From NCBI RefSeq assembly GCF_054482595.1, contig NZ_CM137008.1: DNA of 64,000 bases; one strand, given 5' to 3'. Below, in pieces: positions 47,301 to 50,300 of the stretch. How positions within the stretch are numbered: position 1 is the first letter of the stretch; each line of letters starts with the position of its first letter. Position numbers: made by a program.

Positions 47301-50300
47301 ACACTTATACACTGGGTGCAACGGAATCCCAGGCGCACTATTATTTAGCTTGAACCGTTAATATTTTCCCTCCAGAATATTCTGTAAGATTACTTATTTC
47401 ATTAGCCAAAAGCGCTTTGAACATATTTCGGTCCTGCCCGAAAACAACGCCAGAAAAGAAAGTCCCAAGGTTGCGGTAGCCGCCTACGGTCGGCATACGG
47501 ATAAACAGGTAAGACGTACCCTCGTACGTGCCGGTAAACCAAGCATCATAATCTGTGAGAGATTGGTTATCACAGTGAGCAGCTCTAACTAATTTTGCGC
47601 GGGTAGAGATATTGCTGCCTACTGTATTAAGGTCATACGCACCCGATATAGGATTAAGATCTTCCCCGCTGCGTAATGTATAAATAGTCCCAATGCACCC
47701 TCGTTTCCCATACTGACCACCAACGATACGATAATACGGCCCAGCAGACTGGTCTGGATTCGGCAACGCCATATCCCGACACATAGTGGTACTGAACGTT
47801 GGTATGGTTGCCAGCCCACCAAGATTACCTAATGTAGCGAAAGTTGCAGTTTTCGTGTCGTATGAATTCCTTTGAGGCCACGACGTTTCAAACTTATTGC
47901 TGTACACGATTTCTAACTTAGCACCGTTAGTTAAACGGGCCATCGCGCCATTGAAAGTAGTGGTCGAGCTGGCAATTAGTTGCTTAATACTTACTTTAGC
48001 ATAACCAGATAGGTCAAACATGTAGCTACCTGCAGCCTGCGTTTGATCGTACAGATGTATATTATCTATCTGTAAGTTAGCCCCGGTGCCCTTAATAATC
48101 GTACCGCTGTTCTGACGTGAAGGTTGTTCACAACCTAAAGACGAAATGCTGTACGAGCCTGCGTTAAAAATATACGGAATCCCAGCGCAATCGTCAGCGG
48201 CTAATGGACCAATTTCACAATATGAGCCCGTCAACTCAAAGGCACAGTAGTTTGTTTTAAACGCGTTACATTGGGATACTACGTAGCTTGCCCCCCCATG
48301 TATATGAATACCACCATATATCCCGGTAGCGTCGGAACCTTGGACAACGATTTCGCGGATGGAAACACCAACGAAGGTATTGCCGCCAAAATACATCCCC
48401 CATTTTTGCGCAAGGATAAACAGATCACTAAATTCCTGGTATACGGCGGTATTGGGAGTGTAATACCCGTAACTATCCGTTGTATCGTCCAGGATGCGTA
48501 GTCCACGGACAACATTACCACGTTTACCCTTGTTATAGAAAACAGCGTTAATATCCTGAGTTCCTACCGCCGTTTTGCGAATAATGGATGCACGACCCTC
48601 CCCGACGAATCGGCTACCATTTGGTTGATAGTATTTCTCATTGTAAACATCTTCCAAATCGTAAAGAAGAATAGAGTCCGATATCTCATATTCGCCAGCG
48701 GGCACAAATATAGTTTTTCCCAGTTGCGCGGATACAAGCGATGCTCGATTAAAAGAGAGCGTCCAATCTGGATCTGAATCCAGTTTAAAGTCCAGTACAG
48801 AAATAGTTTCAGAGTTTTTCTGGTGTTGCGTTCGATTTACGGCCCCGTTAAATGGTTGCCGAACAGCTATCTTCGCATCATTAACAATAGTAGGACCATA
48901 GTCTTGCGCCAACTCTGACCTTAGTTGATCAGGGTCATACTTAAGCACATTCGGAAAATAGAACTGCTGTGCACCATATGCATCATAAACAGCCATAGAA
49001 TGGCCTTGCACAGTTACGAACTTGGCAATCTGTCCGTTATATACAGGATACCCGCCAGCGTTAATGATGATTGGCTGTGCAACAGGAACGTGAGAACCGT
49101 CTTCATTCTCTACATAAACCTGAATCTGGTTTTCAGGATTTACCGGGTCAGTGTCAATTTTTCCGATATAAATTTTGCCATTGGCAACCGCTTTAAAAGA
49201 ACGCGCCATAGTGAAGAGTTGCGAAGGCATACTCACTACAACATTGGCATTTATTGAATCTGTCATTTAATTTGCTCCAGATACAAGGAATCGCCGCAGC
49301 ATGGCTACGGTTGATGTTTGTTGCATACCGAAATGGTACGATTGTTGATTTGTACAGTAGGTTTTACGATGCCATTCCACCCATTTGGTGAGGCATTGAT
49401 GATGTACAGCAAATACGATGAGGCGCAGTTCCACTTCGGCATAATGCCATATTTTTTCTTTGCCATTATGCAACATTACTCCCATGAATCAGGTGTTGTA
49501 GTGCTTTAACACCTTCCTCATTGTAGCGGAATGCTTCCACCTGTTTGCTGGAATGCGCAGATTTATCCAGGAAGAACTTCCCGTACTGCTCAGTTTTGAG
49601 GTTGTTTGCGTTAGCAATGCGACCAATCTTGTTGGCCGTTACCCCAAGCTGCTCTGCAACCTCCCCTGCTGAGTAGTAATGCTCTTCTATTGCTGGAAGA
49701 GGTATTGCATTAAAACCAACGATCGGGTTGATTATGCTTGCTGCCGCAGTCTGCTTTGCTTCCGGCGCAAGATTTGGCATCAAATCGAACAGATTGGTAA
49801 CAGCTTCAACCGTCATTTTCAATGTTCGCGCCTGGCGATACTCAACAAGTCCACTAGACGATTTACCGCTTTTAATGTGCGCTTCTTGCATACTTTCAAG
49901 TTGGTCTACAAGTGAGCGGCGAACAGCTTTAGATTCACGAGCAGCCACTCGAAGGGCTTGCTTAATTGACATAACAACTTTTTCAGAAGTTGTCTTGTTT
50001 GATTTTTGAACTACGAAAATTTCGTAGTGCTCACCTTCAAGTTCATCCTTAATGCGTGCAATAAAGTCGTTATTGCGGACTTCTTTTTCCCCGCACTGTC
50101 TACGAGCATGATTGACCATCTCTAACAGGTACTGGCTATCAATGGTTTTATCCGTGACAACGGATCCGATGTTTGCTACATTCTTAAAAGTCATTAGGCA
50201 TTCCTTATGTGGTAGTAAGGGTGTGACATAGGCCGCCAGCAGCACACTGGCGGTTTTCTTTTTGCGCCGTCCGGCGCACCAATCAATGAATCCATTCCTC

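Follow-up and report, generated by a model that had tools for sequence, protein, structure and literature searches.

What kind of receptor-binding body does a tailspike carry when it has kept a P22-type virion anchor but ceases to resemble the P22 spike beyond it, and which surface glycan might that body address? The question is raised by a gene on the minus strand of a 64,000-nucleotide (nt) stretch of contig NZ_CM137008.1 (RefSeq assembly GCF_054482595.1), the whole of which is referred to below as the window. A preliminary description had placed a tailspike gene with an exchanged body at 47341-49266, and the gene is indeed there as a single open reading frame (ORF) of 641 amino acids (aa). 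Our reading, to which we attach a probability of about 0.8, is that it encodes the receptor-binding tailspike of a P22-like podovirus prophage residing at a lambda attachment (att) site, and that its swapped, predicted beta-helix body would be a glycan-cleaving module carried as a mobile cassette.

The anchor and the body

The N-terminal part of the protein is a P22-type head-binding domain. The Pfam family PF09008 (Head_binding) covers residues 4-114 (E 4.8e-65; 217.3 bits against a cut-off of 24), and in a search of all PDB sequences the P22 gp9 chains align without gaps over residues 2-120 only (E ~1e-47 to 1e-49), the domain being ~73% identical to that of P22 (72-74% on structural alignment). 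The colinearity of the first ~115 residues with the P22 domain, noted in the preliminary description, is thereby borne out. The same is true of its statement that the remaining ~525 residues are unlike the P22 body, as no P22 match reaches the last ~520 residues and the similarity ends at residue 120 instead of running the full length of gp9. An orthologue of the P22 gp9 endorhamnosidase was rejected because of this confinement of the match to residues 2-120. P22 gp9 and HK620 gp9 share with the tailspike the PF09008 domain, the place of the gene in a P22-like late region and a body of beta-helix fold, and HK620 gp9 matches residues 1-191 at 65% identity. However, the bodies of both are unrelated to the tailspike body in sequence, and neither the endorhamnosidase specificity of P22 nor the endo-N-acetylglucosaminidase specificity of HK620 can be transferred to it.

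The best overall match is the endorhamnosidase gp14 of Sf6 (PDB 7sg7, 7ukj, 2vbk). Its head-binding domain is 86-89% identical to that of the tailspike, and the similarity passes through the neck into the first rungs of the helix (query residues 1-274, E 3e-76; with the delta-N construct the alignment extends to residue 293, E 6e-8). Sf6 gp14 is also the best Foldseek match for the whole predicted model (E 6.7e-24), with which it shares an architecture of adaptor, beta-helix and C-terminal beta-sandwich. Past residue ~290, however, no sequence similarity is detectable and the remainder is alike in fold alone, so that the region holding the Sf6 catalytic residues is unaligned; across the full structural alignment identity is ~26%, most of it N-terminal. 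The body called divergent in the preliminary description is therefore divergent with respect to P22 but not wholly unrelated to known spikes, given the similarity to Sf6 gp14 up to residue ~274. An Sf6 gp14 endorhamnosidase orthologue was likewise rejected, as the similarity stops before the catalytic part of the helix.

Structure prediction provides further insight into the body. The AlphaFold2 model, a monomer built with 45 homologues as input, has a mean predicted local distance difference test score (pLDDT) of 83. Between residues ~160 and ~450 most means over blocks of ten residues exceed 90, although there are dips at ~201-220 and ~381-390, and the whole of this stretch is modelled as beta-strand forming a long solenoid. 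Residues 494-639 make up a separate beta-rich domain, and pLDDT is low at residues 123-127. What the model predicts for the body is a right-handed parallel beta-helix, as in P22-type spikes and as the preliminary description had expected. All of the defining P22-type features that were testable are present in the tailspike.

PHROG 21710 (labelled 'unknown function') matches the tailspike over residues 4-640 (E 4e-272), and the sole whole-body homologue from an isolated phage is gp208 of the Salmonella phage SKML-39 (YP_007236303; Agtrevirus, Ackermannviridae), annotated 'hypothetical protein' and 38% identical over residues 113-640, the C-terminal domain included. These similarities place the tailspike in the body family of PHROG 21710 and SKML-39 gp208. 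The gene for gp208 is the last in a SKML-39 block with a 1,019-aa neighbour; the protein differs from the tailspike in its N-terminal anchor and in coming from a myovirus whose multiple spikes form a branched complex, and as the two are only 38% identical their specificities probably differ. The family is narrow. Among 1.84 billion representatives, end-to-end body matches fall into five 50%-identity clusters (E 9e-82 or better), while a sixth cluster that reaches E<=1e-30 matches the body only in part.

Exchange of the body between anchors

The distribution of the two parts of the gene differs greatly among complete E. coli genomes. The first ~340-360 nt are present at 90-96% identity in 1,106 of 5,426 such genomes, whereas the whole gene is found in only 3 of them (WL164, MB06022 and CH468). 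The closest prophage with a different spike body is that of ET826, and in a BLAST comparison of window 46700-50300 the homology with it ends at gene nucleotide 356 (codon ~119) and resumes in an integrase relic beyond the 3' end of the gene (Table 1).

Head and body modules differ in history even among carriers of one and the same body. Relative to WL164, synonymous divergence (dS) is 0.28 in codons 1-119 and 0.003 in the 522-codon body, the latter corresponding to one synonymous difference. Relative to WL164 and L012, there are 24 differences in gene nucleotides 11-220 and 5 across the remaining 1,706 nt; with all 24 of the N-terminal differences lying in that interval, the crossover falls within the head-binding domain, the breakpoint being near gene nucleotide 220 (window ~49046). 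A further discontinuity lies inside the body. The MB06022 allele (L004) has ~70 substitutions packed into gene nucleotides 530-814 (window ~48453-48737), a patch that spans aa 177-271 in the first beta-helix rungs, and the rest of this allele is 97-99% identical; the patch is a case of intragenic mosaicism within the beta-helix.

The same body is also found on other anchors. Metagenomic proteins carry it at 85-92% identity from residue ~130 to the end on different N-termini, among them the T7 tail-fibre N-terminus (PF03906) together with PF18668, PF18668 alone, and two other N-termini; one further partner is a 910-aa fibre-like protein. All of these partners come from metagenomic or raw-read assemblies with no known hosts. 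Weaker family matches point to the neck region, as most of the 131 representative matches cover just the neck and cap motif (residues ~129-200; body residues ~10-80). The modular swap put forward in the preliminary description is thus upheld by nucleotide breakpoints, by the discordant dS of the two modules and by the presence of this body on other anchors. In our reading the body together with its 3' flank is a mobile cassette, exchanged by homologous recombination within conserved head-binding sequence or the neck motif on one side and within gtrA and integrase remnants on the other.

Earlier reports have already described how spike bodies are exchanged across P22-like, T7-like and Ackermannviridae phages (PMC10408124, PMC10791037, PMC8432352, bioRxiv 10.64898/2026.05.19.726188). 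According to these reports, receptor-binding cassettes pass between Lederberg-, Kayfuna-, Kaguna-, Gamaleya- and Kutterviruses (Pas et al. 2023, PMC10408124; AV101, PMC10791037; phiHS3, bioRxiv 10.64898/2026.05.19.726188), and the receptor-binding domains of prophage spikes move from genus to genus (PMC10408124, PMC10791037). The subtypes to which the accessible portions of PMC10408124, PMC10791037 and bioRxiv 10.64898/2026.05.19.726188 assign a serogroup do not include the body subtype of the tailspike.

The possibility has to be considered that the tailspike gene has lost its function, as a remnant in a prophage that is decaying, and has ceased to serve any phage. The same gene is found in the prophages of CH468, MB06022 and S43, which are visibly decayed and in which the spike is flanked or truncated by insertion sequence (IS) elements, and in the window itself the gtr operon and an integrase gene appear to have been deleted beside the tailspike. 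However, the ORF in the window is of full length and has a good ribosome-binding site, the P22-type morphogenesis block upstream of it consists of long intact ORFs throughout, and alleles from many independent assemblies match the body at 99.7% identity. The ratio of nonsynonymous to synonymous divergence (dN/dS), where divergence suffices for it to be measured, is 0.04-0.11 in the head and 0.12-0.29 in the body; both are well below 1 and show that purifying selection acts on the gene. We consider a relic very unlikely. The 641-aa sequence is identical to that of an NCBI protein (P0001) named 'phage head-binding domain-containing protein', and dozens of E. coli variants that are 93-100% identical have this name only. 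A scan for promoters and terminators around the gene gave no signal exceeding shuffle expectation.

Table 1. Positions in the window of the tailspike gene, its domains and the features at its 3' flank
Feature	Position	Strand	Basis
Tailspike coding sequence, 641 codons + stop	47341..49266	-	ORF list; one uninterrupted ORF
Shine-Dalgarno GGAG, ATG 8 nt downstream	49275..49278	-	read in sequence
Head-binding (virion adaptor) domain, aa 1-119	48910..49266	-	PF09008; P22/Sf6 head-binding structures
Hinge, neck and conserved cap motif (IAVRQP..RTQHQKN.E.ISVLDF), aa 120-165; junction zone with other anchors	48772..48909	-	homologue matches, pLDDT
Predicted right-handed parallel beta-helix, aa ~166-456; presumed glycan-binding/cleaving module	47899..48771	-	
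C-terminal beta-sandwich domain (predicted), aa 457-641; strongly conserved in family	47344..47898	-	
Exchanged 1.74-kb cassette relative to ET826 (body + ~170 nt of 3' flank)	47172..48910	-	flanking homology 47019-47171, 48911-49436
gtrA 5' relic, first 21 codons (MLKLFAKYTSIGVLNTLIHWV), convergent with the spike	47256..47318	+	translation
3' relic of IntS-type integrase gene, last 27 codons (ending in YLDKRREMMQWWADWLDEKVE and the stop)	47019..47102	+	translation
Lambda/434-type attR, core + P arm; prophage end next to ybhB-bioA	46794..47018	-	

Activity and target of the body

It is established for P22 and Sf6 that the spike is a homotrimer attached to the tail hub through its head-binding domain, and six copies on the hub are typical of P22-type spikes. 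By analogy, residues 1-119 of the tailspike would dock a homotrimer onto the hub of its own tail. The beta-helix (residues ~166-456) would then bind a host surface polysaccharide, most likely cleaving it as an endoglycosidase, and by such cleavage the virion would gain access to the outer membrane; a glycan-degrading activity is what the fold and the family context of the body suggest. The conserved C-terminal beta-sandwich probably locks or stabilises the trimer. Across 16 aligned end-to-end homologues (30-72% identical) this domain has 25 invariant positions. A search with its profile against PDB sequences gave nothing beyond chance-level immunoglobulin matches (E at least 0.017).

Several findings weigh against the reading of the tailspike as a glycan-cleaving spike whose body sets O-antigen specificity. 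The structural neighbours of the body are only 8-16% identical to it and include hydrolases, lyases and epimerases, and with low identities and activities so diverse the fold does not fix the chemistry of the body. There is no characterised member in the PHROG 21710 body family, the NCBIfam models gave zero matches to the tailspike, and the model is one of a monomer, so that the trimer and the geometry of an active site lie outside its reach. The three hosts that have the full gene have three different O-antigen loci, and the clusters at these loci have manB and manC in common and no specific glycosyltransferase. Two of the three full-gene prophages (those of CH468 and MB06022) are degraded.

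As regards activity, the alternative is that the body binds its glycan without cleaving it, or modifies it as a deacetylase or esterase would rather than depolymerising it. In the alignment of 16 homologues the invariant acidic residues of the beta-helix are D197, D260 and E380, which are candidates for catalytic or structural residues. Their invariance extends to homologues that are 30-47% identical and presumably face different glycans, and the top structural neighbours of the body are enzymatically active depolymerase spikes, both of which argue for cleavage. No SGNH or esterase domain is found by Pfam at E up to 1, the sole match besides PF09008 being a sub-threshold one to the pectate-lyase-like PF12708 (residues 163-245, E 0.16). 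A body that does not cleave is highly improbable in our judgement, and the deacetylating activity that the preliminary description had allowed for is without support, as no esterase or deacetylase domain is detectable. Two further candidates were rejected, namely a deacetylase/esterase spike of the SGNH type, for lack of such a Pfam domain, and an endosialidase-type spike (CUS-3, K1F), for which the C-terminal Peptidase_S74 chaperone domain would be expected and is not found.

As regards the target, the rfb locus lies outside the window, and the serotype comparison covers three complete genomes. WL164 has an O160-family wzx/wzy cluster (galF-gnd) plus an O9-family ABC-transporter cluster (wzzB-his), MB06022 has an O159-family cluster in which wzy is frameshifted, and CH468 is of a rare unnamed O type that occurs in 10 of 5,426 genomes, CH468 alone among these having the spike. 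The two clusters of WL164 are held at once (L005 9278-15386 and 21337-33243), and the O9 family is one of polymannan. The O loci of all three hosts contain genes for GDP-mannose synthesis, and each host retains the colanic-acid cluster.

The discordance of these loci lends no backing to the specificity for the host serotype suggested in the preliminary description, and it is consistent with a target other than the O-antigen, such as a K-antigen capsule, colanic acid or a cross-serogroup glycan, in which case the spike would not report on O-serotype. PHROG 8280, which has the label 'colonic acid degradation' and matches residues 2-454, points the same way, although this label is a bare annotation and the score owes much to the head-binding domain. 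There are precedents as well, in that a P22-like phage with a spike targeting group 1 capsule is described in one report (bioRxiv 10.64898/2026.05.19.726188), and some receptor-binding protein subtypes occur, according to Pas et al., in prophages of many serogroups (PMC10408124). However, no group 1 capsule genes wza-wzb-wzc are found between galF and gnd in any of the three hosts (the kps loci were left unexamined), and the CH468, MB06022 and S43 prophages, being decayed, may contain spikes that predate a switch of O-antigen, which would apply to two of the three discordant hosts. Furthermore, the gtrA relic directly 3' of the spike favours the O-antigen as target; together with the gtr operon that in CUWW10 lies beside a spike homologue 72% identical to the tailspike, it suggests that O-antigen modification travels with this spike family. 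Spikes of Lederbergvirus-type prophages generally track the O-antigen of the host (PMC10408124).

Because of these observations we propose that the target of the spike is most probably the O-antigen, and we regard another surface polysaccharide as unlikely. That the cassette recognises a glycan feature beyond a single O-serogroup, whether a motif shared between O-antigens or a polysaccharide that is not an O-antigen, seems to us quite improbable; if it did so, one spike would open hosts of the O160/O9, O159 and unnamed types, and a second binding function might come from the unusually conserved C-terminal domain. Our literature search for the receptor of SKML-39 gp208 or for an O160- or O159-linked prophage spike found nothing.

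Prophage surroundings and significance

The tailspike gene is the last gene of the P22-like prophage and stands at the end of its virion assembly and ejection block. Upstream on the same strand are genes for P22-type ejection (DNA transfer) proteins and a tail needle (PHROG matches), and farther upstream are ORFs that match gp10, gp4, coat, scaffold and portal according to the annotation of the homologous ET826 prophage. An immI-like block, made up of two antirepressor genes and two repressor genes of the Arc/Mnt type, separates the spike from the virion genes. In this region (window 49466-51588) the antirepressor-type genes, of 259 aa and 236 aa, differ from each other, the two repressor genes are divergently arranged, and the content varies among all of the related prophages inspected. 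An 864-nt segment with an antirepressor-like gene (window 49437-50300) is 100% identical to the ET826 prophage, while the sequences that adjoin it are either unrelated or 93% identical, which suggests that the immI region underwent a very recent exchange.

At the other side of the spike, the 15-bp attR core at 46794-46808 has one mismatch, with 0.01 such matches expected by chance, and the P arm resembles the attP regions of phages 434, HK106, mEp332 and Huey at 88-98% identity. Huey, whose attP arm is thus similar, is a P22-like phage. The attR directly adjoins ybhB-bioA-bioB, and the arrangement in WL164 is equal. Homology with prophages that bear the same spike at the argW/IntS site begins exactly at 47019, and the 63 nt equivalent to the gtrA relic are annotated in RefSeq as a partial GtrA family protein in WL164, MB06022 and S43. 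What follows the spike in most of the other carriers is either the gtrA relic or, immediately, an intact intS at tRNA-argW. As the argW/IntS flank is the usual one in other carriers, the prophage in the window appears to have swapped in a lambda-type module, and to judge from these junctions the integration module was probably exchanged independently of the spike. The surviving relics of IntS and gtrA imply the deletion of the earlier integrase gene and of a gtr operon for O-antigen glucosylation.

Tailspike bodies set the host range of phages, and they are of use as serotype-specific depolymerases, in diagnostics and as parts for the retargeting of pyocins and phages. That beta-helix bodies are swapped on a conserved adaptor is a textbook principle that has been systematically surveyed in E. 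coli, and the present finding is therefore a data point rather than a new concept. Body swapping is a well-known route by which phages change host range, and in this sense the finding is an ordinary one that would not surprise a specialist. The body subtype has no characterised member or curated family, yet it stands on at least five kinds of anchor, so that, once its glycan is assigned, an entire group of phage and prophage proteins would gain an annotation together.
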